A stretch of 64,000 bases of DNA, taken from Clostridia bacterium (lineage in GTDB: Bacteria > Bacillota > Clostridia > Oscillospirales > CAG-272). Positions 1,885 to 30,775 of the stretch are shown here, in pieces. The notes under the pieces were generated by a model that ran no database searches, was not told where the DNA came from, and saw nothing but the letters and a program-made list of their open reading frames with translations. Position 1 is the first letter of the stretch. Each line of letters starts with the position of its first letter. The translations under genes were made by a program, and so were the position numbers. The DNA lies in NCBI GenBank assembly GCA_017411745.1, contig JAFQPM010000016.1, positions 19,120 to 83,119 of the forward strand, given 5' to 3'.

Positions 1885-2659
1885 ATATCCTCTCGGTCAG
1901 AGCCTTAAGCTCTGCTCCCTTTTCAAAATATCCAAAAAATTCAAATGACGGATAGCATTTTGAGCACAGAAAAGCAAAATTACCGTCAAGGGTATTCTTT
2001 TCCGATTTCAGTAGATCCCATGCCTTATCCATGAGCTCGTATATTCTTTCGTCAAACGGGTCTTGATCATAATAAAGATGAGCAATATTTATCAGCGTTA
2101 CCGCGATCTCGCCGCGGCAATCCTCATTCTGCTTCAATATTTCGATGGCTTTGTAGCAGGCTTCCTCTGCTTGAATATAATCGCCGAGATCCTTATATGC
2201 CGATGACATATTGTTATACAGAGCAGCCATTTTGTAGTCGTTGGACTCAAGACGGCTCTCGTATATCTCCTTGGATTTTTCATAGTATGGCATTGCCTGT
2301 TCTGCCAGACCAAAGGCCTTCATAGTTGTAGCACAGTTGAGATAGACTGTTCCTACAGATATTGGATCGCCTATTCCCTTTTGCTCTATAAGCTCGAGTG
2401 CGGAGTTAACGGCTGATAAAGCCTTCTCCCTTTCGGCTGTTCTTCTGTAATATCCGATCTTTTCGTTGAGTATCTCTAAAAGTCCGCGCATATCTCCAAG
2501 CGCGATAGCCTCACCCTCCCAGTAATCGAGAAGTCGTCCAACGGCAGAAAGATCGTTTCTTGAGAAAAATTCATTCAGCTTATCAAATATACGCGTTAGG
2601 GGTAGCGTTTTGTAGTTTTCCTTGGAACAGCTTGAGCAGCTTATGTTTTCATTCATCAA
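1871..2659 (-). CDS. Tetratricopeptide-repeat protein
   Basis: 262-aa ORF with several 34-aa A/Y/L-patterned helical repeats (e.g. AALYNNMSSAYKDLGDYIQAEEACYKAIEI). It is translationally coupled to the downstream DUF4037 gene. Confidence 0.8.
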   Translation of the reverse strand: MMNENISCSSCSKENYKTLPLTRIFDKLNEFFSRNDLSAVGRLLDYWEGEAIALGDMRGLLEILNEKIGYYRRTAEREKALSAVNSALELIEQKGIGDPISVGTVYLNCATTMKAFGLAEQAMPYYEKSKEIYESRLESNDYKMAALYNNMSSAYKDLGDYIQAEEACYKAIEILKQNEDCRGEIAVTLINIAHLYYDQDPFDERIYELMDKAWDLLKSEKNTLDGNFAFLCSKCYPSFEFFGYFEKGAELKALTERIYEGN

Positions 2660-2756
2660 CTTTTCCTCCGTATAAGCTTTGATTTTAACCTCACGTCAAT
2701 TATAACACGAAAGCTACGTATTTGTCAATAAAAGGGCACAAAATTGGGAATATCAC

Positions 2757-2785
2757 TTGACAAAATTATAGTTATCTTATATAAT
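2757..2785 (+). promoter_or_regulatory. Consensus sigma-A promoter for the antiporter gene
   Basis: TTGACA (2757-2762), 17-nt spacer, TATAAT (2780-2785). Confidence 0.65.
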
Positions 2786-2816
2786 AATTGTATAACACAA
2801 GTTTACGGAGACGTAT

Positions 2817-2867
2817 CACAGCAAAAGGCGCTTTGGGGCTTTTGTTTTGGTGTGTCTTTTTGTTTTT
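2817..2867 (+). promoter_or_regulatory. Terminator-like hairpin plus U-tract inside the antiporter 5' leader (possible attenuator)
   Basis: cacagcaaaa (2817-2826) pairs with ttttggtgtg (2845-2854) with one mismatch, followed by tctttttgttttt. The element lies between the promoter and the RBS (aaaggagg, about 2873-2880). Confidence 0.35.
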
Positions 2868-2887
2868 CAGAGAAAGGAGGACGAATC

Positions 2888-4342
2888 TTGTTAAACGATT
2901 TTTATTTAACCATATCACCGTCAGCTGTCGTGATAATTGCAATATCAATAATGCTTTTTTCGGGATTTGCGTTGACGAGAATTACGAAGCTTCTTCGACT
3001 TCCAAACGTTACAGCATATATAATCGCGGGAATTCTGATAGGTCCGTTCTGCCTTGATCTGATTCCCGAGACGGTGATTCAGGGTACCGATTTTATATCC
3101 GATATCGCGCTTGCATTCATCGCGTTCAGCGTTGGAGAGTTTTTCAAGGTCTCCTCTCTGCGCAAAAACGGACTCAAAACGCTGGTCATAACCGCTTGCG
3201 AGGCGCTTATCGCCGCATTTTTGGTATTTATTCTAACTTTCTTTATCTTGCGGCTTGATACCGTTTTCTCGGTCGTCCTTTCTGCTTTGGCGGCGGCAAC
3301 CGCGCCGACGTCAACGGCAACGACTATCCGTCAGACCAAAGCAAGAGGCGAATTCGTCGATACGCTTCTTCAGGTCATAGCGCTCGACGACGTGCTCAGC
3401 CTTATCGCGTTCAGCATCGCATTGTCCGTTGCGGGTGCTCTTATGGGCGGCTCGGGTAGCTCCGTATCCCTCACAGATATCATTATGCCCGTTATTGTCA
3501 ATATCGGAGTAATGATCCTAGGTGCATTTTTCGGCTTCTTTTTGAAATGGCTTATGCCTGTAAAAAGATCTACGGACAACAGACTGATCATTTTGATCAG
3601 TATGCTCTTTTTATTCTGCGGAATCTGTACCCTTCTCGATATCTCGCCTCTGCTTGGCTGTATCGCGATGGGAATGGTATACATAAATATTACGGGGGAC
3701 GATAAGCTTTATAAGCAGCTCAACTATTTCAGCCCTCCCGTTATGCTTCTTTTCTTCGTTCGCTCGGGAGCTAATCTGCAAATCGAGTCCCTGTTTACCT
3801 CGTCGGGAAGCTCGTGCACGGTTCCGATAATTCTGATCTCTATCCTTTACTTTTTGGTCAGAATGGTCGGAAAATACGGCGGAGCGTTTCTCGGAGGATT
3901 TATTACAAAAAGCTCCAAGGGCATTCGAAATTACCTCGGACTTGCGCTTATTCCACAGGCTGGAGTTGCTATTGGTCTTGCGGCAATGGCGGCGCGAACG
4001 CTTGGTGGAGAGACGGGTGAAAGTCTGCAGACGATCATTCTCGCTTCGAGCATTCTGTACGAGCTTATAGGTCCTGCGTGTGCAAAGCTTTCGCTCTATC
4101 TTTCGGGATCGTTCTCAAATAAGATCGAGGATCTTGCCCCAGTAGAGCCGCTTGACGAAAACGGCAATCCGAAAAGTGAGGTCGAAATACTTATCGAACG
4201 AATAAATAAGATACGCCAAGAGCTTCCCGACCCCGAAAAGCGCGAGATATCCCCCGAGGAGCAAGCGTTTACAGAAGCGGCTGACGAACAGCTTGAAGCA
4301 TTATCTGAGCTGCAAAAAAGGCGATTCAGAAATCGCAGATAA
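2888..4342 (+). CDS. Cation:proton antiporter (CPA2/Kef-like Na+/H+ or K+/H+ exchanger family)
   Basis: Multi-TM protein with the typical N-terminus RLPNVTAYIIAGILIGP and 10 or more hydrophobic segments, plus a hydrophilic acidic C-tail. The start is moved to an in-frame TTG at 2888, 8 nt after aaaggagg, because the listed ATG at 2744 lies upstream of the promoter. Confidence 0.82.
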   Translation: MLNDFYLTISPSAVVIIAISIMLFSGFALTRITKLLRLPNVTAYIIAGILIGPFCLDLIPETVIQGTDFISDIALAFIAFSVGEFFKVSSLRKNGLKTLVITACEALIAAFLVFILTFFILRLDTVFSVVLSALAAATAPTSTATTIRQTKARGEFVDTLLQVIALDDVLSLIAFSIALSVAGALMGGSGSSVSLTDIIMPVIVNIGVMILGAFFGFFLKWLMPVKRSTDNRLIILISMLFLFCGICTLLDISPLLGCIAMGMVYINITGDDKLYKQLNYFSPPVMLLFFVRSGANLQIESLFTSSGSSCTVPIILISILYFLVRMVGKYGGAFLGGFITKSSKGIRNYLGLALIPQAGVAIGLAAMAARTLGGETGESLQTIILASSILYELIGPACAKLSLYLSGSFSNKIEDLAPVEPLDENGNPKSEVEILIERINKIRQELPDPEKREISPEEQAFTEAADEQLEALSELQKRRFRNRR

Positions 4343-4363: not shown

Positions 4364-5104
4364 ATGAACGTAAACGATATACTCAACACAGTCGATCCCC
4401 TCAGCCGCCTATTCGGCGAATGGTCAAGCAGACTTGATCTATGGTCTATACTTTTAAGGACCGCTATGTCAATACTTTTCTCCGCTATCATCGGCTGGGA
4501 ACGCTCTACCAAGCGCCATGCTGCAGGCCTGCGTACGTTTATGCTGATATCCTTGGCATCTACAATGTCGATGCTGCTTGATATTTTCATTATGACGACC
4601 TTCAGCGTATCCTTCCCAATGATATCTGCCGCAGTGGTCGTCGGAATTGCGATAATCAGCTCGAATTCCATTCTTTTCAGCTCAAAAAATCAGATCAAGG
4701 GACTTACTACCGCGGCGGCACTTTGGGCGGTCGGGTTTATCGGTCTGTTGATCGGTGCGGGCTTCTACACGGTCTCGGTGATAGGCTTCGTTACTATGAT
4801 GCTCTGCCTTTCAACCTTCCCTCATCTTGAAAGACGCTTCAAGAACAAATCCAATCATTTCGAGGTGCATCTCGAGCTTAAAAACAAAGAAAATCTGCAA
4901 AGCTTCGTTGCAACGATACGCAAGCTAGGTATGAAAATAGACGATATCGAGGTCAACCCCGCTTACATAACCTCGGGCTTGAGCGTTTATACCGTAGCAC
5001 TTACTATCCAAAGCCAAGAACTTAAAAAATACAAAACTCACAGCGAGATAATCGAGGCTCTGCGCTCGATCGAATATATCTATCACATCGAGGAGATAAC
5101 CTGA
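4364..5104 (+). CDS. MgtC/SapB family membrane protein
   Basis: The ILFSAIIGWERSTKRHAAGLRTFMLISLAS block is typical of the MgtC family. There are four to five TM segments followed by a soluble ACT-like C-terminal domain. Confidence 0.85.
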   Translation: MNVNDILNTVDPLSRLFGEWSSRLDLWSILLRTAMSILFSAIIGWERSTKRHAAGLRTFMLISLASTMSMLLDIFIMTTFSVSFPMISAAVVVGIAIISSNSILFSSKNQIKGLTTAAALWAVGFIGLLIGAGFYTVSVIGFVTMMLCLSTFPHLERRFKNKSNHFEVHLELKNKENLQSFVATIRKLGMKIDDIEVNPAYITSGLSVYTVALTIQSQELKKYKTHSEIIEALRSIEYIYHIEEIT

Positions 5105-5141
5105 TCTCCAAATATATAAAAACTGAACGATTGGAGCTTTT

Positions 5142-6479
5142 ATGGATACACCTATACTGATAATTTGCATTTTTTCGCTCTGCATATCCGCCATCTGTCT
5201 TATCACGCTGATCGCTGTGTATGGAAAAATGAAAAAGCTTTCGGACGGCGGTAAGACCGAGCGACAGCTTGGCGAACTCAAGGAAAGCATATATAACGAA
5301 TTCTCGCGCAATCGTACCGAGCAAAATGCGGTCGCTCGTGCACAGCGTGACGAGGTCTCAAGGCAGATGTCGGATATTAATAAGCTGCTCAAGGAGCTGA
5401 CAGAAACGAACCGCGAGCAGCTTCTCCGTATATATCGCGAAATGGCGGCGGGAATAAACACTGTCCGTGAAAAGAACGCCGAGATGACCGAAAAGCAAAA
5501 TCAGCGCATTGAGGATTCCCTGACTAAGATCCGCGAGAGCAACGAAAAGAAGCTCGACGAAATGAGAGCAGTCGTTGACGAAAAGCTTACAAATACCCTC
5601 ACACAAAGGCTTGACAGCTCGTTTAAGACGGTTTCGAGCCAGCTTGAAAATCTTTACAAGGCTCTTGGCGAGATGAAGGAGATGTCGGGAGGAATCACCG
5701 AGCACGTCACCTCGCTCAATCGCGTATTGTCCAACGTCAAAGCCAGAGGAACTTGGGCAGAGGTCCAGCTCAAAAACATTCTCGATCAGACGATCCCAAA
5801 TATGTACGTTGAGAATTACGCTCCCACGGCAAGCTCAAAGGAAAGAGTAGAGTTTGCCATAAAGATTCCGTCCGGCGAGAATTATTCCGAGATAACATAT
5901 CTCCCTCTCGATTCCAAATTCCCGATGGAAGATTACGTACGTCTTTGCGAGGCGGCAGATCGCGCAGATCCCGAGGCGACGCGTGCGGCGAGAAAAGCAC
6001 TTGAGGAGAGAGTCATTCAGGAGGCGCGAGCTATCCGCAAATACATAAGCGTTCCTAAGACTACTCCGTTTGCTATAATGTATCTCGCAAGCGAAGGCTT
6101 GTATGCCGAGATAGCCTCCTCCCCGAACGCTATTCCCGAAAGACTGCAGACCGAGTTCAATATTATGATCGCGGGTCCTTCTACCATTACCGCACTGCTC
6201 AATTCGCTTGCTATGGGCTTTAGATTTGCCGCTATCAACGAAAAGGCAAACGAGGTAAGAAAGATACTCGCGGCGGTCAAATCGCAGTACGATAACTTCT
6301 CTACCGTGTTGGCAAAGGCAAAAAAGAAGATCGACGAGGCGGGCAAGACTCTCGACGACGCACAGCACCGAAATGATATCATTCAAAAGAAGCTCAAGGC
6401 TATCGAGGAGATCGATACGTCAGAGGGCGAGGAGATACTTGGTATTGAGCAGGCATCTGTGTCGGATCTTGATGAATAA
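5142..6479 (+). CDS. rmuC: DNA recombination protein RmuC
   Basis: N-terminal TM helix, a long coiled-coil, then the conserved RmuC nuclease-like core (ARGTWAEVQLKNILDQ, FAIKIPSG, YLPLDSKFPMEDY, AIMYLASEGLYAE). Confidence 0.9.
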   Translation: MDTPILIICIFSLCISAICLITLIAVYGKMKKLSDGGKTERQLGELKESIYNEFSRNRTEQNAVARAQRDEVSRQMSDINKLLKELTETNREQLLRIYREMAAGINTVREKNAEMTEKQNQRIEDSLTKIRESNEKKLDEMRAVVDEKLTNTLTQRLDSSFKTVSSQLENLYKALGEMKEMSGGITEHVTSLNRVLSNVKARGTWAEVQLKNILDQTIPNMYVENYAPTASSKERVEFAIKIPSGENYSEITYLPLDSKFPMEDYVRLCEAADRADPEATRAARKALEERVIQEARAIRKYISVPKTTPFAIMYLASEGLYAEIASSPNAIPERLQTEFNIMIAGPSTITALLNSLAMGFRFAAINEKANEVRKILAAVKSQYDNFSTVLAKAKKKIDEAGKTLDDAQHRNDIIQKKLKAIEEIDTSEGEEILGIEQASVSDLDE

Positions 6480-18673: not shown

Positions 18674-20335
18674 TTATTTTTTAATAATAAGGGTAGTGAG
18701 TGATTTTTTCTGTTCTTCAGTTGGTGGCTTTAACTTGCCATTGTTCAAGAGAGTAACAATGCAGTGAAGCAAGAACCATCCGTCAGCGTGGAATACAGAC
18801 TGCAATTCGTACTCTTTCATACGGCGGAGATGTGCAGGAACCGAGTTTAATACAGCCTCGATATAGGGGGCCTTGATAGCATCAAACTCCTCCTTATATT
18901 TTCTTTTAATTTTCTCTCCTATAGCAAGCAGCTTTTCTTGAATTTCTTTGTTTCTCAAAATGATGACTTGCCATGATATTTTGAAGCATCCGTCATAATC
19001 GCCCCAAGTTTTGATATATCCGCGTTCGGAAAGCCATGCATAATCTTCTTTTGAAAGGAGATTTTCTTTTTCGTGTTCATACAACGAAATAACTCGCGCT
19101 GAAGCTTCGAATTCATTACGATTTACACTGATACGTCGTCCTGACCACTCTGTATCAATTTTCCAAAGGATATGATCTCCGTTCATAGCATCATATGGTC
19201 CGCACCAATCTCTCATACGAACATAATCGCTCGGAATTTTCAGATTCTCAGGTACAACAGAAGCATAGGCAATATTATGCGCTCCGTCGGGGCGAATAGT
19301 AGCAACTTCTTCAAAGGTGATTGTGTTATCCATTAGTTTTTTACCCGACATTGCGGCGATATACGGTATAAGCGACCATAAAAGGAAGTTTTTGTCTCTC
19401 AGGGGATTTTCTTTTGTCGAACCTTGAAGCATTTTATTGCAGAAAATATTTTCATCGTCCAAAATACCACTGCTCATTAGTTCCTCATAAAGCTCATTTG
19501 CAAACAATCCCGCCGCTTTTTTATACATTGCGTCTTGCATAGTCAAAAGCTCCGCTGTCGGCTCACTTATGATAAAATTAACGATATACTTATCCCCAAC
19601 TTGCTTCAGAAAACCGTATTCCTCCAAGAAGTCAACTTCGGTTTCGACATATACAGGCGAAACACCAAGGGCATCAGCAATTTCATTTACCGTTTTCGCT
19701 TCGTTACGTACACAATAGCAGATGTTTTGGGAAAGCGCAGAACGGAAAAATTCATCACAAGATTTTGTTCCGATAGAACCGTTGATCCCAACTGATGTAA
19801 ATTTGATAGGGTTAAATTTCAATTCACTTGTTTTTCTCATAGTATCCATACCTCGTTTCAATTCTTTTTTTGCTTCAAACAAGTGCCATTTGACCGTACC
19901 AAGAGGAATATCCAAATCCTTAGCAATATCGGCTTGTTTACGGTTTTCAAAATAATACGCTATTACTATCTTTCTTTGTGTTTTTGAAAGATAAGCAATC
20001 TCACTTTGTAAACGACGAATAGATTTTGTGTTATCATCGAAATCATATTCTGAATCAGGATCGGCAATGATTTCTGCCAATTCATCAATTGATATACCAA
20101 TTATGCCTTTGGATGCTTCACGATAATAATTGCTAAGCGTATTATGTGCGATTGTCCAAATATATTTGCTGACATCCTCAATATCGTCCTTGATTAAAAG
20201 CGATCGAAACGACCGTAATACGATTTCCTGTGAAAGATCCTCCGCATCATATGTATTTTTACATCGTTTTAGCGCAAATCCAAATATGGGTTTCAGATAT
20301 TCAGTTATAATTTTTTCGGCATCTTGTCTGTTCAC
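18674..20335 (-). CDS. Sigma-70 family (ECF-like) sigma factor with a ~380-aa C-terminal extension
   Basis: GTG start 8 nt after GAGGT. Region 2 reads DAEDLSQEIVLRSF. Region 4 reads QRKIVIAYYFENRKQADIAKDLDIPLGTVKWHLFEAKKELK. A second wHTH-like segment (TVNEIADALGVSPVYVETEVDFLEEYGFL) and an unassigned domain follow. No TM segment is seen. Confidence 0.8.
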   Translation of the reverse strand: MNRQDAEKIITEYLKPIFGFALKRCKNTYDAEDLSQEIVLRSFRSLLIKDDIEDVSKYIWTIAHNTLSNYYREASKGIIGISIDELAEIIADPDSEYDFDDNTKSIRRLQSEIAYLSKTQRKIVIAYYFENRKQADIAKDLDIPLGTVKWHLFEAKKELKRGMDTMRKTSELKFNPIKFTSVGINGSIGTKSCDEFFRSALSQNICYCVRNEAKTVNEIADALGVSPVYVETEVDFLEEYGFLKQVGDKYIVNFIISEPTAELLTMQDAMYKKAAGLFANELYEELMSSGILDDENIFCNKMLQGSTKENPLRDKNFLLWSLIPYIAAMSGKKLMDNTITFEEVATIRPDGAHNIAYASVVPENLKIPSDYVRMRDWCGPYDAMNGDHILWKIDTEWSGRRISVNRNEFEASARVISLYEHEKENLLSKEDYAWLSERGYIKTWGDYDGCFKISWQVIILRNKEIQEKLLAIGEKIKRKYKEEFDAIKAPYIEAVLNSVPAHLRRMKEYELQSVFHADGWFLLHCIVTLLNNGKLKPPTEEQKKSLTTLIIKK

Positions 20336-20477: not shown

Positions 20478-20792
20478 TTAGATATTCTTATCAATAAAGC
20501 TCTCGAGAACTGCCTTGTTGCTATATCCTACGGATTTAGCGGCTACCTCGCCGTTTTTGAAGAGAAGAAGCGTGGGAATACTGTCGATTCCGAACTGATT
20601 GCAAAGCTGGGGATTGTTATCAACGTTTACCTTGCAGACCTTTATATCGCTTCTCTGCTCTGCGATCTCGTGAACGATGGGAGCGATCATACGGCAAGGG
20701 CCGCACCACTCTGCCCAGAAGTCTACGAGAACGGGAATTTCGGATTTTACTACTTCGTTTTCAAAATTTTCATTTGTAATATCGATTATCAT
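20478..20792 (-). CDS. trxA: Thioredoxin
   Basis: 104 aa with the canonical WAEWCGPC active site and an IPTLLLFKNG block. Confidence 0.96.
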   Translation of the reverse strand: MIIDITNENFENEVVKSEIPVLVDFWAEWCGPCRMIAPIVHEIAEQRSDIKVCKVNVDNNPQLCNQFGIDSIPTLLLFKNGEVAAKSVGYSNKAVLESFIDKNI

Positions 20793-20813
20793 TTTGTACC
20801 TCTTTAATTTTGA

Positions 20814-21011
20814 TTATTTGCTCTTATAATAAAGCAAGCAGTGGCAATAGCCCTCGAAATCGGGATCCTTGATCTGATCTCTGAACTCCTTGCACATACA
20901 CTTATTTTCAGGGGTTCTCTCTCTGCGGCAAGGACAATAGCCGCCCGTGCGCTCGAGTCCCTCCTTGATAAGCTTTACAACTTCCTTATCGGTATTCTCG
21001 GTTATTTTCAT
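20814..21011 (-). CDS. Small ferredoxin:thioredoxin reductase catalytic-subunit-like protein (three CxC motifs)
   Basis: 65 aa with a GGAGG RBS 8 nt upstream. The Cys pattern is CPC-x9-CMC-x15-CHC (GYCPCRRERTPENKCMCKEFRDQIKDPDFEGYCHCLLY). This resembles the CPC...CPC...CHC signature of FTR catalytic chains. Confidence 0.7.
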   Translation of the reverse strand: MKITENTDKEVVKLIKEGLERTGGYCPCRRERTPENKCMCKEFRDQIKDPDFEGYCHCLLYYKSK

Positions 21012-21036: not shown

Positions 21037-21972
21037 TCACTTCAAAAATCCGTTGATGATCTCTTCCTCGGCTTGCTTTTCGTCAAGTCCAAGCGTCATA
21101 AGCTTCATAAGCTGCTCGCCTGCGATCTTGCCTATCGCCGCCTCGTGAATGAGCGACGCCTCGGTGTTGTTCGCGATGATCTTCGGTATTGCCTGAACCG
21201 ACGCGTTATCCATAATGATGGCATCGCATTCGGTGTGTCCCGAGCAACGCGCGTTTCCGACAACGTCTGAAATAAAGAGCTGTCGCGAATTATCCTTTGC
21301 TACGGAACGCGAGACGACATGTGCTCCGCAATCCTCACCGTTGAGCGCAACGGTAAATTCGGTCTCGGCAAACTGCTCGCCGTGGGTCATTATCTTTTCG
21401 TGGACAACGAGAGTTGCTTTGTCAGCTAAGGTTGCCTCGGTCTTTCTTTTTGTAGAGTCAACGCCCTTGATCTGCGTTGTTTCCATCTCCATATACGCGC
21501 CCTCGGCAAGCTCGACGATCGTATGAGGATTCATAACGTTCTTGCCGTTTCCGTCTCCCTCGCCGTAATGCTTTTCGACGTACTTGAGCTTGGCGTTCTT
21601 GCCGACAAAGAAGCTGTGTATTCCGCTGTGCTCACTATCCTGAACTCCGCAATTATGGATTCCACAGCCCGCAACTATAAGAACGTCTGCGCCCTCTCCG
21701 ATGTGGAAATCGTTATATACGAGCTCCTTGAGTCCTGTTTCCGACAAAATAACGGGAATATGCACGCTCTCGCGCTTCGTACCCGCCTTGATATAGATGT
21801 CAATTCCGGGCTTATCGGTCTTTTTTTCGATTACTATGTTTTCCGAGGAGTTTTTTCCGTACATCTCGCCGTCCACGCGGAGAGAGTACGCTCCCTCGGG
21901 GACACCGTGAAGGTCCGCTACCTCACGAAGAAGGTTGAGCTGAATACTGTCGAGCTTTTTCTTCTCTGCCAT
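21037..21972 (-). CDS. SufB/SufD family Fe-S cluster assembly protein
   Basis: 311 aa with a beta-helix-type repetitive core. The C-terminal block reads DAIIMDNASVQAIPKI...ASLIHEAAIGKIAGEQLMKLMTLGLDEKQAEEEIINGF. The start overlaps the sufC stop (TAATG). Confidence 0.88.
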   Translation of the reverse strand: MAEKKKLDSIQLNLLREVADLHGVPEGAYSLRVDGEMYGKNSSENIVIEKKTDKPGIDIYIKAGTKRESVHIPVILSETGLKELVYNDFHIGEGADVLIVAGCGIHNCGVQDSEHSGIHSFFVGKNAKLKYVEKHYGEGDGNGKNVMNPHTIVELAEGAYMEMETTQIKGVDSTKRKTEATLADKATLVVHEKIMTHGEQFAETEFTVALNGEDCGAHVVSRSVAKDNSRQLFISDVVGNARCSGHTECDAIIMDNASVQAIPKIIANNTEASLIHEAAIGKIAGEQLMKLMTLGLDEKQAEEEIINGFLK

Positions 21973-22703
21973 TATTCGTCACCTCCCATGGTAAACTTGC
22001 ATCCTGCCTGAGCTGAAAGCAGCTCGGGCAAAATGTCGTTTTTCGCGCCGTATGCGGCAACCTTACCGTCTGCGATAACGACTATCTTGTCTGCGATATC
22101 GAGAATTCTCTCCTGATGGGAGATTATAAGGATATTTCCCTTGGTTTTTTCGTACATCTTTTCAAAGACCTTGATAAGATTGTTGAAGCTCCAAAGGTCT
22201 ATTCCCGCCTCAGGCTCGTCAAACACAGAAAATTTTGTTCCGCGCGCGTTGATCATAGCGATCTCAATTCTTTTGAGCTCGCCGCCCGAAAGAGATTCGT
22301 TTACCTCGCGGTTTACGTACTCCTTGGCACAAAGACCGACCTCGGAGAGATATTTGCACGCCTCAGAGACCGAAATTTTGCTTCCTGCGGCAAAAGATAT
22401 AAGATCCTTGACCGTAATACCCTTAAATCTTACGGGTTGCTGGAAGGCAAAGCTGATGCCTGCATTTGCGCGCTCGGTTATAGTCATATTAGTGATATCC
22501 ACGCCGTCAAGCAATATCTGACCCGAGCTTGCGGTGTAGATTCCCGCGATAAGCTTCGCGAGAGTGGATTTTCCGCCTCCGTTAGGGCCTGTTACGGCAA
22601 CGAAGCGCTCGTTTATAGTGAGACTTACGTCGTCGAGTATCTTTCTTTCCTTGCCCGTTTCGGCATCAGTGACGATATAAGTCAGATTCTTTATTTCTAA
22701 CAT
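21972..22703 (-). CDS. sufC: SufC-like Fe-S assembly ABC ATPase
   Basis: Walker A GPNGGGKST, signature LSGGELKR, Walker B FSVFDEPEAGID, ISHQERIL. Confidence 0.9.
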   Translation of the reverse strand: MLEIKNLTYIVTDAETGKERKILDDVSLTINERFVAVTGPNGGGKSTLAKLIAGIYTASSGQILLDGVDITNMTITERANAGISFAFQQPVRFKGITVKDLISFAAGSKISVSEACKYLSEVGLCAKEYVNREVNESLSGGELKRIEIAMINARGTKFSVFDEPEAGIDLWSFNNLIKVFEKMYEKTKGNILIISHQERILDIADKIVVIADGKVAAYGAKNDILPELLSAQAGCKFTMGGDE

Positions 22704-22873: not shown

Positions 22874-23779
22874 TTAATTATCCAAGTATCTGCAAGCCGC
22901 GAGAGCCGCTACTGCGCCGTCGCCGCATGCCGTTGCTATTTGACGGATGTTTTTCGTGCGGCAGTCGCCTGCAACGAAAAGTCCTTCGGTTTCGGTAGCA
23001 CAGTTTTCATCGGATACGATATATCCGCGGTCGGAAAGCGTTACGACGTTCTTATACTGCTCGTTTTCGGGGATCTGTCCGATAGCTACGAACATTCCGT
23101 CGAGGTCAAGTCTTGTTTTCTCGCCCGATGCGGTATTTTTAATGATGATACCGCCGAAAACCTCTGCTCCGTGTATCTCTTCAACGGTAGAGCCATAGAT
23201 TATCTCAACGTTGGCTCTCTTGCGAAGAATCTCTGCAAGCTTTTCTTCGCCCGTGAGAAAATCGAGGTTCTGAACGACGTAGACTTTTTCGCAACCGTCG
23301 GAAAGCATTATTGCCTCCTGAAGTGCGGAGTTGCCACCGCCGATGACCGCTACGGTCTTGCCTGCGTAAAACGCGCCGTCACACACGGCACAGAAGGAGA
23401 TGCCGTTTCCAACGAAGTCCTCCTCGCGTTCGATACCGAGCAAGCGGTGCTTTGCGCCTGTTGCGAGAATTACGGAACGAGCCATAAACTCGCCCTCATC
23501 GCTACTTACACAAAAGAAGCTTCCCTCCTTGTGTACGCCTGTGACCTCGCACATATCTATCTCGGCGCCGAGCTCTATTGCTTGTGAAACAAGCTTTTCG
23601 GCAAGCTCGTTACCGCTGATCTGCGCGTATCCGGGATAATTTTCAATTTTTGGGGAAAAGGTCATCTGTCCGCCGAAGGTTCCTTTATCGAGGATGAGGA
23701 CGCTTTTATCCGCACGCCGTGCATAGATCGCCGCGGTAAGACCCGCGGGACCCGCGCCGACTATTATCAAATCATACAT
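22874..23779 (-). CDS. trxB: Thioredoxin-reductase-like flavoprotein (low-Mr TrxR fold) lacking the NADPH 2'-phosphate motif
   Basis: FAD motif IIVGAGPAGLTAA, redox CAVC (C130/C133), second dinucleotide motif VAVIGGGNSA, and C-terminal FVAGDC. Where E. coli TrxR has HRRDGFR, this protein reads VQNLDFLTG. Confidence 0.88.
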   Translation of the reverse strand: MYDLIIVGAGPAGLTAAIYARRADKSVLILDKGTFGGQMTFSPKIENYPGYAQISGNELAEKLVSQAIELGAEIDMCEVTGVHKEGSFFCVSSDEGEFMARSVILATGAKHRLLGIEREEDFVGNGISFCAVCDGAFYAGKTVAVIGGGNSALQEAIMLSDGCEKVYVVQNLDFLTGEEKLAEILRKRANVEIIYGSTVEEIHGAEVFGGIIIKNTASGEKTRLDLDGMFVAIGQIPENEQYKNVVTLSDRGYIVSDENCATETEGLFVAGDCRTKNIRQIATACGDGAVAALAACRYLDN

Positions 23780-23820: not shown

Positions 23821-26235
23821 TCAAGCGTTTACCGTTTCGATATACTTCTTGATATTGGAAAGATTTGCCGCCTTGGCAACCTCAACACCATTTTCAACTA
23901 CTACGAGTGTGGGTGCCTGTCTGATTCCGTACTTAGCAATAAGATCAAGGTGCTCGTCTGCATAGAGCTTTTCGTAGGAAACACCTGCTTTGTCAAGGAA
24001 CTCGCACGCGATCTTACAGTTGGGGCAGGTCTTGGTTGCGAACAGCATTACCTTGGTTTCTGCCGCGGGCTCGCAGGCACACTCCTCTACCATGGGCTCT
24101 GCAACTGCGTTGATAGTTCTTACGCTGTCAGCACCAACGTTGATCTCGGGGTGAAGCTCGGTGGAACGCTCGATGTTATAATTTCTTCTCTCCTTGAACT
24201 CCTGGCTCTTACCGTCATTCCAGTTCTGAACGGGTCTGTAATAACCTGTGATACGGCTATATACCTCGGTATTCTTGCCGCACTTGGGACAGGTGTACTC
24301 TTCACCGTTGATATATCCGTGGTCGGTACATACCGAGTACGTGGGAGATATCGTGTAGTAAGGAAGCTTATAATTCTCTGCGATCTTGCGAACGAGGTTT
24401 GCCGCACTCTTCCATGTAGGAAGCTTCTCACCGAGGAACGCGTGGAATACCGTACCAGAGGTGTAGAGGGTCTGGAGCTCGTCCTGAATGTCGAGAGCGT
24501 CGAAGATATCCTCGGTATAGCCTACGGGAAGGTGGCTGGAGTTGGTATAGTAAGGAGCTTTTGCGTTATCGGTTGCGGTAATGATGTCGGGCCATCTCTT
24601 TCTATCGTGCTTTGCAAAACGGTAGGAGGTGGACTCTGCGGGAGTTGCCTCAAGGTTATAGAGGTCGCCGTACATTTCCTGATAGTCGGAGAGTCTTTCT
24701 CTCATGTGATTGAGAACGTTCTTGGAGAACTCCTGGGTCTCCTTATGAGTCATATCGGCTCTGAGCCACTTTGCGTTAAGACCAACCTCGTTCATACCAA
24801 CGAGACCGATGGTCGAGAAGTGGTTATTAAAGGTTCCGAGATATCTCTTGGTGTAAGGATACAGACCCTCGTCGAGAAGCTTGGTGATAACGGTTCTCTT
24901 GGTCTTGAGCGAACGAGCCGCGATATCCATAAGCTTATCAAGTCTCTTATAGAAGTCTTCCTCATTCTCTGCAAGATATGCAATTCTGGGCATATTTATC
25001 GTAACTACACCGACAGAACCCGTGGACTCACCCGAACCGAAGAAACCACCCGACTTTTTGCGGAGCTCACGAAGGTCAAGACGGAGACGGCAGCACATAG
25101 AACGAACGTCGCTGGGCTCCATATCGGAGTTGATGTAGTTGGAGAAGTAAGGAGTACCGTACTTTGCGGTCATTTCGAAGAGGAGCTTGTTGTTCTCTGT
25201 TTCGGACCAGTCGAAGTCGCGAGTGATGGAATATGTGGGGATAGGATACTGGAAGCCTCTGCCGTTTGCGTCACCCTCGATCATGATCTCGATGAACGCC
25301 TTATTGACCATGTCCATTTCCTTCTTACAATCCTTGTACTTGAAGTCCATTTCCTTGCCGCCGACGATACAGTTGAGCTCTGCAAGATCGTTAGGAACGG
25401 TCCAGTCGAGAGTGATGTTCGTGAAGGGAGACTGCGTTCCCCAACGAGAAGGAGTATTTACACCGTAAATGAAGGACTGGATGCACTGCTTTACTTCCTT
25501 GTAGGAGAGGTTATCTACCTTTACGAAGGGAGCGAGATATGTGTCAAAGGAGGAGAATGCCTGTGCGCCTGCCCACTCGTTCTGCATGATACCGAGGAAG
25601 TTTACCATCTGGTTGCAGAGGGTGGAAAGGTGACCTGCGGGAGAGGAGGTGATCTTACCGGTTACGCCGCCAAGTCCTTCCTGAATAAGCTGCTTTAATG
25701 ACCAACCTGCACAGTAGCCCGTAAGCATAGAAAGGTCGTGGATGTGAAGATCAACGTTTCTGTGAGCGTTTGCGATCTCGTCGTCGTAAACCTCGCTGAG
25801 CCAATAGTTAGCCGTGATAGCGCCCGAGTTGGACAGGATAAGTCCTCCTACGGAATAGGTTACGGTGGAGTTCTCTTTTACTCTCCAGTCGAGAGCGCGG
25901 AGATACTGGTCTACGGTTGCCTTATAGTCGAGCGCGGTGCCCTGAACGTTTCTGAGCTTCTCTCTCTGACGGCGATACAGAATATATGCCTTAGCAACGT
26001 CTGCATAGCCCGCCTGAACGAGAACCGACTCAACACAGTCCTGGATCTCCTCGACGGAGATAAGTCCGTCCTTGATCTTGGGCTCGAATTCTGCCGTTAC
26101 CTTCAACGCCAAAAAATCTATAATATTCTGATTGAACTGTTTTTCCTGTGCCTCAAAAGCAAGCTTTATTGCATCAGAAATTTTGCTAAGATTAAATTCT
26201 ACGATCTTTCCGTCTCTTTTTTGTACGCTGTACAT
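23821..26235 (-). CDS. nrdD: Anaerobic ribonucleoside-triphosphate reductase NrdD (class III) with a fused C-terminal thioredoxin-fold domain
   Basis: N-terminal ATP-cone (VQKRDGKIVEFNLSKI), finger-loop RSMCCRLRLD, Zn-ribbon CPKCG, glycyl-radical motif SRITGYYRPV. An extra ~135 aa follows the glycyl-radical motif and ends in VMLFATKTCPNCKIACEFLDK...APTLVV. Confidence 0.95.
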   Translation of the reverse strand: MYSVQKRDGKIVEFNLSKISDAIKLAFEAQEKQFNQNIIDFLALKVTAEFEPKIKDGLISVEEIQDCVESVLVQAGYADVAKAYILYRRQREKLRNVQGTALDYKATVDQYLRALDWRVKENSTVTYSVGGLILSNSGAITANYWLSEVYDDEIANAHRNVDLHIHDLSMLTGYCAGWSLKQLIQEGLGGVTGKITSSPAGHLSTLCNQMVNFLGIMQNEWAGAQAFSSFDTYLAPFVKVDNLSYKEVKQCIQSFIYGVNTPSRWGTQSPFTNITLDWTVPNDLAELNCIVGGKEMDFKYKDCKKEMDMVNKAFIEIMIEGDANGRGFQYPIPTYSITRDFDWSETENNKLLFEMTAKYGTPYFSNYINSDMEPSDVRSMCCRLRLDLRELRKKSGGFFGSGESTGSVGVVTINMPRIAYLAENEEDFYKRLDKLMDIAARSLKTKRTVITKLLDEGLYPYTKRYLGTFNNHFSTIGLVGMNEVGLNAKWLRADMTHKETQEFSKNVLNHMRERLSDYQEMYGDLYNLEATPAESTSYRFAKHDRKRWPDIITATDNAKAPYYTNSSHLPVGYTEDIFDALDIQDELQTLYTSGTVFHAFLGEKLPTWKSAANLVRKIAENYKLPYYTISPTYSVCTDHGYINGEEYTCPKCGKNTEVYSRITGYYRPVQNWNDGKSQEFKERRNYNIERSTELHPEINVGADSVRTINAVAEPMVEECACEPAAETKVMLFATKTCPNCKIACEFLDKAGVSYEKLYADEHLDLIAKYGIRQAPTLVVVENGVEVAKAANLSNIKKYIETVNA

Positions 26236-26358: not shown

Positions 26359-26387
26359 ATTATACTATATTTAGTGGTAGTTGTCAA
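26359..26387 (-). promoter_or_regulatory. Consensus sigma-A promoter of nrdD
   Basis: Minus strand reads gggTTGACAactaccactaaatatagTATAATgc. The -35 is at 26387-26382, the spacer is 17 nt, and the -10 is at 26364-26359. Confidence 0.7.
26362..26377. promoter_or_regulatory. NrdR box 1 (overlaps the -10/spacer of the nrdD promoter)
   Basis: atactatatttagtgg matches about 13/16 positions of the NrdR consensus acaCwAtATaTwGtgt. Confidence 0.6.
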
Positions 26388-26394
26388 CCCCTAA

Positions 26395-26410
26395 ACACAA
26401 TATATTGTGT
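26395..26410. promoter_or_regulatory. NrdR box 2 (perfect palindrome)
   Basis: acacaatatattgtgt is a perfect 16-bp palindrome and a full match to the NrdR-box consensus. Its centre is 33 bp from box 1. Confidence 0.85.
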
Positions 26411-26426
26411 CAAATTTCGAATTTTG

Positions 26427-26442
26427 TCACTATATATAGTTT
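26427..26442. promoter_or_regulatory. NrdR box 3 (abuts the nrdG stop codon)
   Basis: tcactatatatagttt matches 14/16 consensus positions. Its centre is 32 bp from box 2. Confidence 0.7.
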
Positions 26443-27155
26443 TATACCCCTCTTAATTGTGCATTTGGCACAAAAGGCAACAAAACGTTCAAAAAGTTTT
26501 CCATTTCGCTCTCATTATAGGAAGAAATTTCCTTTCCGATTATGTCGCCCGAGTCCTTAAATTGCTGCAAAAAATACTTCTCGTCGCCCTTGATCCATTC
26601 ACCGATCAAATAAAAATCTTCTTCGGTATGGAACGGCTTTGCAACCGTGGTTCTGAATTCAAAATCCACCTTCCCTTCCATCAGGTAATTTTTACTTTCA
26701 ATTATCGGAGCAAGGTCATAGTTCTCCGCAAGACCGACCGTATAGGCGTACTTTGCGGGGTGGTTTTTGATATCCATAGCAACGTAGTCTACGAGCTTAT
26801 CCTCGACCAATCTTCTTATCACCTCGGGGCGAGTTCCGTTTGTGTCGAGCTTTACCGCATAGCCGAGCGCCTTGACTTCTTTAATAAAGTCGTACAGCCC
26901 CGGCATAAGCGTCGGTTCTCCGCCCGTGATCGCAACTCCGTCTAGCACACCTGCTCTTTTTTTCAAAAATGCTAATATCTCGGCGTTTGAGTATGGCTTC
27001 TGCTCGTCGGCACGGACAACCAAAGATGCGTTATGGCAAAACGGACATTTGAAATTACAGCCTCTCGTAAAGAGCGTGCAGGCTACCTTACCCGGAAAAT
27101 CGAGGAGCGTGAGCTTTTGCAATCCTGCGATAATATTGTCCTTCATTTTTTTCAT
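26442..27155 (-). CDS. nrdG: Anaerobic ribonucleotide reductase activating protein NrdG (radical SAM)
   Basis: The CNFKCPFCHN radical-SAM cluster motif and GVAITGGEPTL are present. The ATG at 27155 overlaps the ABC ATPase stop (ATGA). The in-frame ATG at 27146 is better spaced from GAGGT and may be the true start. Confidence 0.93.
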   Translation of the reverse strand: MKKMKDNIIAGLQKLTLLDFPGKVACTLFTRGCNFKCPFCHNASLVVRADEQKPYSNAEILAFLKKRAGVLDGVAITGGEPTLMPGLYDFIKEVKALGYAVKLDTNGTRPEVIRRLVEDKLVDYVAMDIKNHPAKYAYTVGLAENYDLAPIIESKNYLMEGKVDFEFRTTVAKPFHTEEDFYLIGEWIKGDEKYFLQQFKDSGDIIGKEISSYNESEMENFLNVLLPFVPNAQLRGV

Positions 27156-27895
27156 ACCTCGTCGAAATTGATCTTGCGCGAAAGGAGATATCCGTTATCC
27201 ATTGTATATACGGTATCTGCACGCTTGGCTATCTTCATATCGTGTGTGACCATTACGAGCGTAAGTCCTATCTGTGCACGGGTTTCCAGCAACAGCTCAA
27301 GAACCTCGTCGGCGTTTTTACGGTCGAGATTTCCCGTCGGCTCGTCGGCAAACAAGATCTGCGGCATATTTATAAGCGCGCGAGCTATAGCAACTCTCTG
27401 CTGCTGTCCGCCCGAAAGCTCGCTTGGCAGATGGTGAAGTCTATCCGACAGACCAAGCATAGGAATGAGCTTTTTAAGGTGCTCCTCGTAGGAAAATTCG
27501 TCGCGGCGACACATCATTGTCGGCACGAGAATATTCTCATACGCGGTGAACTGCGGTATGAGGTTATGCTTTTGAAAAACAACGCCGATATTCATTCCGC
27601 GATAGCGATTGAGCTCGTCGGAGCCCATTTTCGTTATCTCTCTGCTTCTTATTTTTACAGATCCCGCGTTGGGTTTATCGAGACCTGCACATATATTCAT
27701 AAACGTACTTTTTCCCGAGCCTGAAGATCCGATTATTGCCACGAATTCACCCTCGTGCACCTTGATGCTTGCTCTGTTGACCGCGGTCACAACGTCATCA
27801 TACTGCTTGTACTGCTTTATGATGTCGGTAGCCTCCAGCATAATTCTGTTGGGATCTATGGTGTTAAGGTCAATGGCACTTGTTTTATTTTCCAT
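27152..27895 (-). CDS. ABC transporter ATP-binding protein (MacB/LolD/FtsE-like)
   Basis: Walker A GSSGSGKST, Q-loop, signature LSGGQQQRVAIARAL, Walker B ILFADEPTGNLD. Confidence 0.93.
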   Translation of the reverse strand: MENKTSAIDLNTIDPNRIMLEATDIIKQYKQYDDVVTAVNRASIKVHEGEFVAIIGSSGSGKSTFMNICAGLDKPNAGSVKIRSREITKMGSDELNRYRGMNIGVVFQKHNLIPQFTAYENILVPTMMCRRDEFSYEEHLKKLIPMLGLSDRLHHLPSELSGGQQQRVAIARALINMPQILFADEPTGNLDRKNADEVLELLLETRAQIGLTLVMVTHDMKIAKRADTVYTMDNGYLLSRKINFDEV

Positions 27896-27911: not shown

Positions 27912-30161
27912 TTATAACTCAATTTTCTGCTCTTCAAGCAGCTTGCTCTCTCTTTCAAGCTTCTTCTTGTAAAGAATGAAAGGAATTACGCTTGAAATAC
28001 ATCCGCAAAGTGCGGAAACGCCTGCGTATAGAAGTATAGTCGAGAATGGAACAAAACTATTGAAGGAAACGTTCATTCCAGGCACTCCGAGTCTTGGCAG
28101 CACGCTGGTAAATATCCTGTATATTCCATAACAGGTCAATCTGCTGAGTATGAGGTTTACAACAAAGCTTACAGCAAATATCAGAACACCAGAGACCGCA
28201 TGTATGCCTCCGATCTCCTTGATCGTTGCACCAATCGAGCCAAGCGTTCTGAACTCCGCTTCCCTCTTTTTATAGAACATCACCTGCGAGAAAATCCAAA
28301 CGACAGGAGATATCATAAGCACGAGGATAGAAAGCAGATAAAGAAGACCCGGAAGATTTACGCGGTTGTCTACTATGGAATATATGTCCTCGTTGGTATA
28401 TGCTACGCTCCAATCGGGATAGTTTTCCATTATGGTTTTAATTTCAGATCGAATATCAGAAACATTATCGAGATCGATGCCCGATTCCGAGAATATCTTA
28501 AGCTCTGTTATTGCGTGTTTATCGGTGGTTACGCCGTAATAAGTATCGGCGTTCATTCCTACGATGAAGCTATCGGTAGCATCGGTATCGTGGATGACCG
28601 CGCCGACGGTATATTCGGTATAAATAAAGGAACAATGGTAGATCTGCTGTGTAAGTATCTTATTGATATCGGACTGCGGGAGCATTTCGCTATCGGTCGA
28701 TACCCAATCGGCAACTACTACCGTGTCGCCCGGCTTAAAATCAAAGCTTTTAGTACCATAGAGTCCTTCGCTTATTATTATCATATTGTCATCTGCGAGA
28801 AGCTTTTGAGCATCGTACCCTGCAAGATACTCAACGTCGTAAAGAGATTCGTACATCTCAAGCTCAAGCGCATCAATGCAAACGTATTTGCAGCGGTTGG
28901 TTGCTCGATTATATCCCTTGACTTCATCAAGAGAGGCTACCGTCAAATTAGATCCGCCTACCTCGGTACCCGGAAGAATAAGCAAATGGTCCATTCTTAC
29001 GTCAAAGCTCTTGCTCTGCTCGAAGGTGATCTTATCGACGTGGTCGATATTTTCAAGCTTTTCAAGAAGCTCTTCCGCTTCCCAATTCGCCTTGTGGCGA
29101 TTTTCATCCAATATGGTGCTGAATTTATAAGTGAGGACTACCGATTCGTCGGGTGCTTCGTTCTCCGTTTTCAACATATTGGCGCAATATATTCCCGTAA
29201 CGAAGATGACCGAGAAGCAGACTGCTCCGAGGACAAGTCTTGCGACGTACTTTCTGAATCTCCACGTAGTGTAAGTCTCGTAATTGAGTGGCATTTTCTT
29301 TGCGAAGATATTGAAAGAACGGCGCGGAGAGGACACGAAATTGGAGTTGTCGGCGGTGGTTATAAGCGCTATCGGGGGCTTGATGAAAAGCGTTCCGAGG
29401 GATGAGCACGCTGCGACAAAAGCCGCAATAAAGGTCAATGCCGCGTAGAGCAAGAGCTGCAAAAGCGAGATCTTGACTGCAACTCCGCTATCTGCATATA
29501 CTGTCAAGGTCAAAAGATACGATATGATCGCGGACGGAATGAGTGTGATCAGATTTATCGTCAACAGCTCGTTCATAGCGATCTTACCGAGCATTTTTTT
29601 GTCGGCGCCGAAGGTCATATATATGCCGTATTGGAATTTATAGTGATTGGTTCGCACCGAGTAGATGACCGCGAGGATCAGAGTGCCTATAATAAAGGAT
29701 AGGGCTCCGATTATGACGGACGAGAGAAGTATCTCTCCGCGCAACTCGGTCCTATAGGTATATTTCGGGGTCACTTGGCATTGTACCGTTACGTTACTGA
29801 GATACTTCTCTGTAAACTCCTCCAGCGCTCCGCCCTTAAGGTTGACTCCTATGCTTTCCTTATTTCCTACGTAGCCAAAGCTAGTAAAGCAGGCTTTACT
29901 GCTTGAAAGATCGTAATTGAGGCGGTTCATAACCGTTGATATTCCCGTATTAGTTCCCGTTATAGTTACGTCGTATTTGTAATTTTCTTCGAACAGAGTG
30001 TCGTTGGCATTATAATTGGTGAACGCAGAGAAAGTCCAGATCCCGAAAAGGAGCTGGACTACTATTACTGCGGCATACAAGCCTATAAATTCCTTGTAAT
30101 TTATCAGGACGCTTTTTACCGAGCTTTTTATTGAATTCTTAAGCTTTCTTAAAAATTCCAA
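27912..30161 (-). CDS. FtsX-like ABC transporter permease (two FtsX modules, large extracytoplasmic domain)
   Basis: 749 aa with a TTG start 8 nt after AGAGG. The layout is a TM helix, an extracellular domain and a 3-TM bundle, occurring twice. This is typical of MacB-type fused permeases. Confidence 0.85.
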   Translation of the reverse strand: MEFLRKLKNSIKSSVKSVLINYKEFIGLYAAVIVVQLLFGIWTFSAFTNYNANDTLFEENYKYDVTITGTNTGISTVMNRLNYDLSSSKACFTSFGYVGNKESIGVNLKGGALEEFTEKYLSNVTVQCQVTPKYTYRTELRGEILLSSVIIGALSFIIGTLILAVIYSVRTNHYKFQYGIYMTFGADKKMLGKIAMNELLTINLITLIPSAIISYLLTLTVYADSGVAVKISLLQLLLYAALTFIAAFVAACSSLGTLFIKPPIALITTADNSNFVSSPRRSFNIFAKKMPLNYETYTTWRFRKYVARLVLGAVCFSVIFVTGIYCANMLKTENEAPDESVVLTYKFSTILDENRHKANWEAEELLEKLENIDHVDKITFEQSKSFDVRMDHLLILPGTEVGGSNLTVASLDEVKGYNRATNRCKYVCIDALELEMYESLYDVEYLAGYDAQKLLADDNMIIISEGLYGTKSFDFKPGDTVVVADWVSTDSEMLPQSDINKILTQQIYHCSFIYTEYTVGAVIHDTDATDSFIVGMNADTYYGVTTDKHAITELKIFSESGIDLDNVSDIRSEIKTIMENYPDWSVAYTNEDIYSIVDNRVNLPGLLYLLSILVLMISPVVWIFSQVMFYKKREAEFRTLGSIGATIKEIGGIHAVSGVLIFAVSFVVNLILSRLTCYGIYRIFTSVLPRLGVPGMNVSFNSFVPFSTILLYAGVSALCGCISSVIPFILYKKKLERESKLLEEQKIEL

Positions 30162-30178: not shown

Positions 30179-30775
30179 TTATATGTAACTGCGCTGGATT
30201 GCCACCACTCTGCCGAGAATGAGCACCTCGTCGACTATTATCGGCTTCATAGTGCTGTTTTCGGGCTGAAGACGGTAATGACCGTCCTCGCGGAAAAATC
30301 TCTTGACAGTTGCTTCATTTTCAATAAGTGCAACCACGATCTCTCCGTTTTCGGCGTAGCAGGTCTTTTCGGCTATTACCATATCGCCGTCCATAATTCC
30401 GACCTCTATCATACTTTCGCCCTTTACCTTCAGAGCAAACATCTCCTCAGCAGAGGTTCTTCCGATATATCCGATATATCCGTCGAAATCCTCTTCGGCA
30501 AGGATAGGCTGGCCTGCGGTGACTGTGCCGAGCACGCGCACTGCAGATACCATAGGCATATCCTCGTTAATTACGCTTATAGCGCGGCTTTTTCCGTCTT
30601 CTTTACGTATATAGCCAAGCGTGTCGAGGCGGTTGAGGTACATATGAACGGTTGAGGTGCTCTTATATCCGAGATCAGCCATAATATCGCGCACGCTGGG
30701 CGCAAATCCGTTATTCTTTACCGAATTTACGATATAGTTATAAACTTTTTGTTCTTTCGGCTTGAGTTTTTCCAT
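30179..30775 (-). CDS. lexA: LexA repressor
   Basis: N-terminal wHTH (PSVRDIMADLGYKSTSTVHMYLNRL), Ala-Gly cleavage site VTAGQP, catalytic Ser in GESM and Lys in ATVKRF. Confidence 0.94.
   Translation of the reverse strand: MEKLKPKEQKVYNYIVNSVKNNGFAPSVRDIMADLGYKSTSTVHMYLNRLDTLGYIRKEDGKSRAISVINEDMPMVSAVRVLGTVTAGQPILAEEDFDGYIGYIGRTSAEEMFALKVKGESMIEVGIMDGDMVIAEKTCYAENGEIVVALIENEATVKRFFREDGHYRLQPENSTMKPIIVDEVLILGRVVAIQRSYI

Follow-up and report, generated by a model that had tools for sequence, protein, structure and literature searches.

Why would a class III ribonucleotide reductase (RNR) carry a redoxin of its own at the C-terminus, behind the glycyl-radical domain? The question is raised by a 64-kb stretch of DNA (64,000 nucleotides, positions 19,120 to 83,119 of contig JAFQPM010000016.1, assembly GCA_017411745.1; hereafter the window) from a Clostridia bacterium, in which the anaerobic reductase NrdD ends in an additional thioredoxin-like domain. 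The in vivo reductant of most class III RNRs is unsettled. A redoxin fused to exactly the NrdD type with an MCCR finger loop, together with a reductase gene next door, provides comparative evidence for a thiol route in vivo. As explained below, the C-terminal 78 residues, attached through a flexible linker, probably serve the enzyme as a dedicated disulfide reductant of the thioredoxin type.

The fusion gene occupies 23821..26235 on the minus strand, as do all its parts described here, and is one unbroken open reading frame (ORF) of 804 codons plus the stop codon in the ORF list of the window. From the N- to the C-terminus, the protein is composed of an ATP-cone (residues 3-92, 25960..26229; PF03477, 82.7 bits), the NrdD catalytic core with the glycyl-radical domain (residues 121-686, 24178..25875; PF13597 (NRDD), 639 bits with the full profile covered), a variable 38-residue linker predicted to be disordered (residues 689-726, 24058..24171), and a 78-residue thioredoxin-fold domain (residues 727-804, 23824..24057). 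The ribonucleoside triphosphate reductase profile NF006126 (684 positions) matches residues 2-688 with 1142.9 bits against a cut-off of 548 and stops at residue 688, leaving about 116 residues beyond the normal NrdD end. A C-terminal redoxin domain on this class III NrdD is thus real, as the initial annotation had proposed when it described an extra thioredoxin/glutaredoxin-fold domain with a CPNC active site; ORF, Pfam, AlphaFold, and Foldseek agree on it. The motifs it had quoted (CPKCG, SRITGYYRPVQNWNDGK, ...EECACEPAAETK, and VMLFATKTCPNCK...QAPTLVVV...) are all present in the ORF, with CPKC at residues 649-652, SRITGYY at 660-666, and ECACE at 718-722. The interval it had assigned, 23821-24130, corresponds to residues 703-804 plus the stop codon, and its linker of about 55 residues has to be shortened, as the unconserved stretch comprises about 38. 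Public annotation names such fusions merely 'ribonucleoside triphosphate reductase' and leaves the added domain unflagged.

That two genes had been merged through a missed stop codon or a frameshift, as an artefact of assembly or annotation, has virtually no chance of being correct. The segment 23700-24216 is matched by contigs from four independent gut-metagenome runs with 0-1 substitutions and no coding indel; the sole indel in those contigs falls in the nrdD-trxB spacer, after 23807. Among the best 120 protein clusters out of 8000 candidate relatives scored, identities range from 80 to 97%, nearly all lengths from 795 to 809 residues, and all carry the same C-terminal domain. Likewise, among the best 80 of at least 589 species-representative loci matched by the tail-domain profile, nearly every locus with sufficient upstream sequence encodes the tail and a complete NrdD in one ORF. 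The four runs and more than 180 assemblies therefore contain an intact single ORF. What speaks for an artefact is that, in two public metagenome-assembled genome (MAG) assemblies (L001 and L002), a separate small gene for a 'redoxin' of 95-103 residues is called after nrdD. Both turned out to be damaged copies of the fused gene. In L001, a TAA (5818-5820) stands in place of a Tyr codon immediately ahead of the Zn-ribbon CPxC, and in L002 about 60 codons are deleted together with a frameshift (about 4850-5110). For this reason, we also rejected the two loci as a natural split into nrdD, redoxin, and trxB, which would have served as Rosetta-stone evidence. In the contig graphs of the gut metagenomes, the depth rises 5- to 150-fold at 24012-24035 (coding for CPNC) and at 24180-24260 (coding for the glycyl-radical motif), and contigs break there because many co-resident species have these conserved segments in common. 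The linker-skipping 'joints' in the same graphs stem from the different linkers of other species.

The assignment of the tail to the thioredoxin/glutaredoxin fold, deduced initially from a β-α-β start with CxxC and a cis-Pro motif, holds in profile searches as well as in structure prediction. Within the whole protein, PF00462 (Glutaredoxin) matches residues 729-779 with 27.0 bits (gathering cut-off 22.9), and PF00085 (Thioredoxin) matches residues 727-792 with 20.2 bits, slightly below the cut-off. The isolated domain exceeds both Pfam cut-offs with 31.3 bits for PF00462 and 25.5 bits for PF00085. We modeled residues 689-804 with AlphaFold using 40 homologous tails. The predicted local distance difference test (pLDDT) score is about 95 over residues 727-804, which adopt a β-α-β-α-β-β-α topology, and about 50 over residues 689-726. 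When residue 689 of the protein is counted as residue 1 of the tail, the strands comprise residues 39-45, 67-70, 88-93, and 96-102, and the helices residues 50-62, 75-81, and 104-115. The CPNC motif (residues 737-740, 24016-24027) is located at the junction between strand 1 and helix 1, and the A-P-T stretch bearing the presumed cis-proline (23908-23916; QAPT, residues 773-776) immediately precedes strand 3. A Foldseek search of the PDB with the tail model returned thioredoxins at probability 1.00.

To which of the known redoxin families does the domain belong? Among solved structures, the 'glutaredoxin-like' protein disulfide oxidoreductases from archaea and Aquifex give the best match to the sequence profile of the tail family, the match falling on their C-terminal unit; thioredoxins and the minimal thioredoxin MJ0307 follow. 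The domain differs from classical TrxA in having CPNC instead of WCGPC, scores 27 bits with TIGR01068 (cut-off 96.8), and has no extra N-terminal β-α unit of TrxA, as it begins in the AlphaFold model at the CxxC-bearing strand. NrdH proteins carry the active-site motif C[VM]QC (CVQC/CMQC); the tail has CPNC and scores 18.5-21.5 bits with TIGR02194 (cut-off 85.75). The glutaredoxin equivalogs GRX_bact and Grx3 give 16-20 bits against cut-offs of 90-129, even though the gathering score of PF00462 is passed, and the reductase encoded beside the fusion is a thioredoxin reductase (TrxR)-type flavoprotein, not a glutathione reductase. Because the tail domain reaches none of the NCBIfam cut-offs for TrxA, NrdH, Grx3, and YruB, we regard it as a distinct minimal thioredoxin-fold family with the signature T-C-P-N-C-K ... 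Q-A-P-T-L ... N-x-S-N-I-K/R-K.

The conservation among 182 aligned full-length fused sequences separates the domain sharply from its linker. T736, C737, P738, N739, C740, A774, and P775 are invariant in 182/182, and the linkers, 18-43 residues long, share only 8-42% identity with that of the window. An invariant active site behind an unconserved linker points to purifying selection on a domain carried by a flexible tether. By our own estimate, linkers of this length (18-43 residues) could bridge about 60-150 Å when extended, which makes it plausible for the redoxin to reach its target in cis or across the dimer. The linker of the window contains C719-A-C721 (24073-24081). The number of linker cysteines is bimodal over the 182 fused proteins, with none in 71 and exactly two in 79, and the pairs are mostly CxC or CC with acidic flanks. 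We rejected the linker CxC as a conserved shuttle, since a pair missing from 71/182 sequences cannot be essential. The pair, recurrent though dispensable, might act as a dithiol shuttle or bind a metal.

The NrdD core has the hallmarks of a class III enzyme, namely the NRDD barrel, the glycyl-radical motif of the RxTGY type (SRITGYY with G664, 24238..24258), the Zn-ribbon (C636, H639, C649, and C652, 24280..24330; all four ligands invariant), the finger-loop cysteine C382, and a nearby nrdG. Thiol-dependent reduction by class III enzymes requires a second finger-loop cysteine and a glutamate (PMC9669993). Both are found here, alongside the bottom-face cysteine. The finger loop M380-C381-C382-R383 (25087..25098) is of the double-cysteine type according to the classification in PMC9669993 and aligns with SCCR of Thermotoga maritima NrdD. 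From the alignment with the formate-type Prevotella copri enzyme (M-G-C-R versus M-C-C-R), C382 would be the thiyl-radical cysteine and C381 the extra one. C175 in the first barrel strand (25711..25713) aligns with the bottom-face cysteine in 'yCfay' of T. maritima NrdD. E529, within N527-L528-E529 (24649..24657), is located at the proton-source position; its counterpart in the T. maritima enzyme is the glutamate within 'FNIEQVPAE', and the P. copri enzyme has leucine there. C175, MCCR, and E529 are conserved in 182/182 fused sequences, and the viral copies with a readable finger loop all have MCCRL, save one intein-interrupted copy read as NCCRL. The fusion was thus seen only on NrdDs possessing the full set of residues for thiol chemistry.

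The same finger loop raises the alternative that the enzyme is driven by formate, with the tail being a general cellular thioredoxin fused by chance and serving other targets or none. The leading methionine of the finger loop has been associated with the use of formate, and in 83% of the double-cysteine class III enzymes the residues for formate chemistry are retained side by side with those for thioredoxin chemistry (PMC9669993). With its MCCR loop, the NrdD of the window falls into this majority group able to use either reductant, and Met380 is invariant in the 182 sequences. Enzymes of the MCCR type are equipped for both reductants (PMC9669993), and free CPNC redoxins occur away from nrdD in two loci (L003 and L035, see below). 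Against this alternative, the fusion is kept in two or more phyla as well as in phages, its active site being strongly conserved, and the glutamate and the extra cysteine, neither of them needed for formate chemistry, do not vary among the fused sequences. We therefore consider a formate-driven enzyme with an accidental tail quite improbable.

Where would the electrons for a tethered reductant come from? A gene for a TrxR-like flavoprotein of 301 residues (22874..23779, minus strand; TIGR01292, 334 bits) starts 41 nt past the nrdD stop codon and encodes the active-site motif CAVC (23381-23392) as well as GGGNSA (23324-23341). Among the 74 species-representative loci with enough downstream sequence, 64 have such a gene on the same strand less than 400 nt downstream, even at 46-66% identity. 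The HRRxxxR motif, which recognizes the 2'-phosphate of NADPH, is replaced by VQNLDFLTG (residues 169-177, 23249-23275) in the protein of the window. It is replaced in 61/66 of the NrdD-linked TrxR-like proteins, with [VI]QNLxxLTGE in 50/66; the canonical HRR remains in 5/66, including the partner in Faecalibacterium prausnitzii. The best PDB match of the window protein, 7jyp, has the VQNL motif in common. The loss of HRR in thioredoxin reductases goes along with NADH, ferredoxin, or unknown donors (PMC5627308). The replacement suggests a donor other than NADPH, and the electron source here is probably not NADPH.

On this basis, the tethered reductant would work as follows. A pyridine nucleotide or another donor would reduce the FAD and the CAVC dithiol of the TrxR-like protein, which would in turn reduce C737/C740 of the fused domain. 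The domain would then reduce the C175-C381 disulfide formed in each turnover beside the thiyl-radical cysteine C382. E529 would act as the proton source, as in class I/II enzymes and in the NrdD of N. bacilliformis, for the conversion of nucleoside triphosphates (NTPs) to deoxynucleoside triphosphates (dNTPs). The fold, the invariant residues of domain and core, and the conserved gene order nrdG / nrdD-redoxin / trxB are established by the analysis; we infer the reduction of the active-site disulfide by the domain, that of the domain by the neighboring flavoprotein, and the nature of the upstream donor.

Two further roles could be served by a redoxin at this position. The domain might keep C636, C649, and C652 of the Zn-ribbon/glycyl-radical domain reduced for activation by NrdG, having thereby a role in maintenance or activation. 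It is attached right behind the Zn-ribbon and the glycyl-radical domain, and the neighboring TrxR would equally serve this purpose. Padovani et al. (2001, J Biol Chem) reportedly found thioredoxin to be needed for the activation of E. coli NrdD. Against maintenance, formate-type NrdDs have the same Zn-ribbon, yet the fused sequences with a readable finger loop (all 182, and the viral ones save the NCCRL copy) combine the double cysteine with the glutamate in the core. Moreover, a tether that is permanent and stoichiometric and has a reductase of its own points to a flow of electrons more than to repair on occasion. Such a role thus seems improbable. The other possibility, a redox sensor or protector forming mixed disulfides with finger-loop or Zn-ribbon cysteines under oxygen or disulfide stress as a switch-off or shield, appears very improbable. 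Class III RNRs are oxygen-sensitive, and trxA with a ferredoxin:thioredoxin reductase (FTR)-like gene, as well as suf genes, lie nearby in the window. These neighbors are, however, syntenic only in the closest relatives (L004-L007), for which reason we also rejected a functional tie of the fusion to them. Oxygen damage to glycyl-radical enzymes consists of backbone cleavage, which a dithiol cannot prevent (PMC12288474), and no feature specific to sensing was found in the domain.

The maintenance, sensor, and formate alternatives fit less well than a tethered disulfide reductant because the cores are exclusively of the thiol type and come with a dedicated reductase. The initial annotation had offered the tethered reductant side by side with a protector of the oxygen-sensitive glycyl-radical domain. 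The former is favored by the comparative evidence, namely the thiol-type cores, the TrxR-like neighbor in 64/74 loci, and a free redoxin-TrxR pair in L035; for the latter, we found no evidence. Several observations nevertheless weigh against a dedicated reductant. Met380 is kept, so that the enzyme could use formate as well or instead. The full-length AlphaFold model, built with 51 close homologues, has a mean pLDDT of 50.6, leaves the NrdD barrel unresolved, and is confident only for the ATP-cone and the redoxin; it is too poor to show any docking of CPNC at the active site. With the barrel plugged by the glycyl-radical domain, a 9-kDa redoxin would have to find a way to C175/C381. Adjacent trxB is absent from 10/74 loci, including L070, L073, and L081, which are all three Lentisphaeria/Victivallales loci keeping a full NrdD and the downstream flank. 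None of 26 viral contigs has an adjacent trxB either, which would fit a self-contained reductant recharged by the host.

How widespread is the fusion? Relatives of the tail family were detected with the tail-domain profile in at least 589 species-representative genomes. The hosts include Oscillospiraceae, Acutalibacteraceae, Ruminococcaceae, Faecalibacterium (F. prausnitzii, L063), Lachnospiraceae, Christensenellaceae, and Lentisphaeria/Victivallales. Among the matches listed, the genome closest to the window is L004, a MAG of a Clostridia member sampled from the rectum of a roe deer, with 96-99% protein identity across the region. The 26 viral contigs from IMG/VR (L084-L109), many of 60-200 kb, also encode the NrdD-redoxin fusion. 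Several of the viral copies are without the ATP-cone (about 672 residues), and the viral ORFs in L092, L093, and L104/L105 comprise 1174-1430 residues. In P0209 and P0270, the NrdD core is broken by long insertions that look like inteins.

Free-standing members of the redoxin family exist as well. L035 encodes a CPNC redoxin of 79 residues located 65 nt upstream of a canonical (HRRD) TrxR (2026-3238), with no nrdD nearby; this pair suggests that the redoxin family is a TrxR substrate. An integrase-like ORF lies near it. A second free CPNC redoxin, of 99 residues, is found in L003 (6001-6300) among helicase, RepB-like, and Hsp70-like genes, a mobile-looking context. The tail search of the representative library retrieved mostly short proteins, many of them fragments or chimeric gene calls, and thus gives no clean count of fused versus free forms. 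One metagenomic protein of 309 residues (P0121) has two CPNC domains; tandem repeats of about 20 residues (DACDGTRILGTAKAEPRP...) lie between them and ahead of the first.

The concept joins two known things, the thioredoxin-dependent class III RNR with a separate thioredoxin and the redoxin domains fused to RNR components. The N. bacilliformis NrdD uses thioredoxin (Wei et al. 2014, as cited in PMC9669993 and PMC4493059). According to these sources, NrdD2-type enzymes such as the N. bacilliformis and the T. maritima NrdD have the double-cysteine finger loop, the bottom-face cysteine, and the active-site glutamate in common with the NrdD of the window, and their reductant is a protein dithiol recycled by thioredoxin reductase, as proposed here. 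They differ in having a separate redoxin and SCCR without the methionine, whereas the system described here combines MCCR, the C-terminal fusion, and the TrxR-like gene next to it. The TrxR of T. maritima prefers NADH (PMC5627308), and the 24-kDa redoxin paired with it is suspected to reduce TmNrdD (PMC4493059). Protein disulfide oxidoreductases, which occur with TrxR in Thermotoga, Aquifex, and Pyrococcus (PDB 1a8l, 1j08, 2ayt, and 2ywm), include the solved structures that the tail-family profile matches best. They are, however, free proteins with two thioredoxin-fold units and CPYC, instead of a single NrdD-fused unit with CPNC.

As for redoxins fused to RNR components, the glutaredoxin in Grx::ATP-cone::NrdB from Facklamia ignava is an efficient, functional RNR reductant (PMC6187632). 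Like that protein, the family of the window unites a small redoxin and an RNR component in one polypeptide, and the arrangement is kept across taxa. The F. ignava fusion is N-terminal, on the radical-generating subunit of a class I enzyme, and of the glutathione-type GrxC; the fusion in the window is C-terminal behind the glycyl-radical domain of a class III enzyme and has CPNC with a TrxR partner. The RefSeq survey in the same study lists one 'Glutaredoxin:NrdD' (Lachnospiraceae bacterium TWA4, subclass NrdDd) and does not report a C-terminal architecture of the present kind (PMC6187632). Two studies on RNR extensions describe the C-termini of class III enzymes only as glycyl-radical domains (PMC9669993, PMC9531940). 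In a non-exhaustive literature search, we came across no description of an NrdD with a redoxin fused to its C-terminus or of a redoxin with CPNC. NrdH-redoxin and the NrdH-like protein that, with a ferredoxin:disulfide reductase, serves the NrdD3 of Methanosarcina barkeri (Wei et al. 2015, cited in PMC9176816) resemble the present system in that a small, glutaredoxin-sized thioredoxin-like redoxin is dedicated to the RNR and encoded with it. The M. barkeri reductase is an Fe-S protein of the FTR type, unlike the flavoprotein found here. The NrdD3 finger loop is QCCR/A with no glutamate (PMC9669993), versus MCCR with E529 in the window.

The fusion is real, widespread, and experimentally useful, while being mechanistically expected. 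Hundreds of gut anaerobes, as well as phages, have conserved the arrangement. NrdG, the NrdD-redoxin fusion, and the TrxR-like protein offer a compact three-protein system for studying the thiol route. The system also bears on how a protein reductant gets to an active site that the glycyl-radical domain closes off. A more far-reaching picture, which we regard as unlikely when taken as a whole, would make the fusion and its non-HRR TrxR-like partner a self-contained, formate-independent chain and the main dNTP route across a large group of gut Clostridia, F. prausnitzii among them, and in their phages. The class III RNRs of the majority 'MCCR plus Glu' type would then run in vivo on protein dithiols supplied via NADH or ferredoxin, not NADPH, and the linker pair (CxC/CC, in roughly 45% of the sequences) would act like the C-terminal shuttle of class I enzymes between the redoxin and the active site.

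The activase gene nrdG (26442..27155, minus strand; radical SAM, TIGR02495 NrdG2, 217 bits) lies upstream of nrdD, as in most related loci. In the nrdD promoter region (26359..26442, minus strand), the TTGACA-17-TATAAT promoter (26387..26359) is perfect, and just upstream of it and abutting it are two NrdR-box palindromes, a perfect one (ACACAATATATTGTGT, 26395-26410) and a second one with 2 mismatches (26427-26442), their centers being 32 bp apart. These two are the only NrdR boxes found in the whole window, where 0.02 would be expected by chance. An Rfam scan of the nrdD leader matched no riboswitch or other RNA element.

On the downstream side, a 65-residue protein with the CPC...CMC...CHC pattern of the catalytic subunit of ferredoxin:thioredoxin reductase (PF02943, 19.8 bits, below the cut-off) is encoded directly upstream of a classical WCGPC thioredoxin gene (20478-21011, minus strand for both), and the two may constitute a second thioredoxin system, of the Fe-S type. 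The FTR-like gene is preceded by a minimal pair of sufC and sufBD (21037-22703). On the other side of the locus, the last 4 nt of an ABC-transporter ATPase gene (27152-27895) overlap with the start of nrdG; the ATPase gene is preceded by genes for an FtsX-like permease (27912-30161) and lexA (30179-30775), all on the minus strand. In L001, lexA is followed directly by nrdG, and the ABC pair therefore looks inserted in the window.

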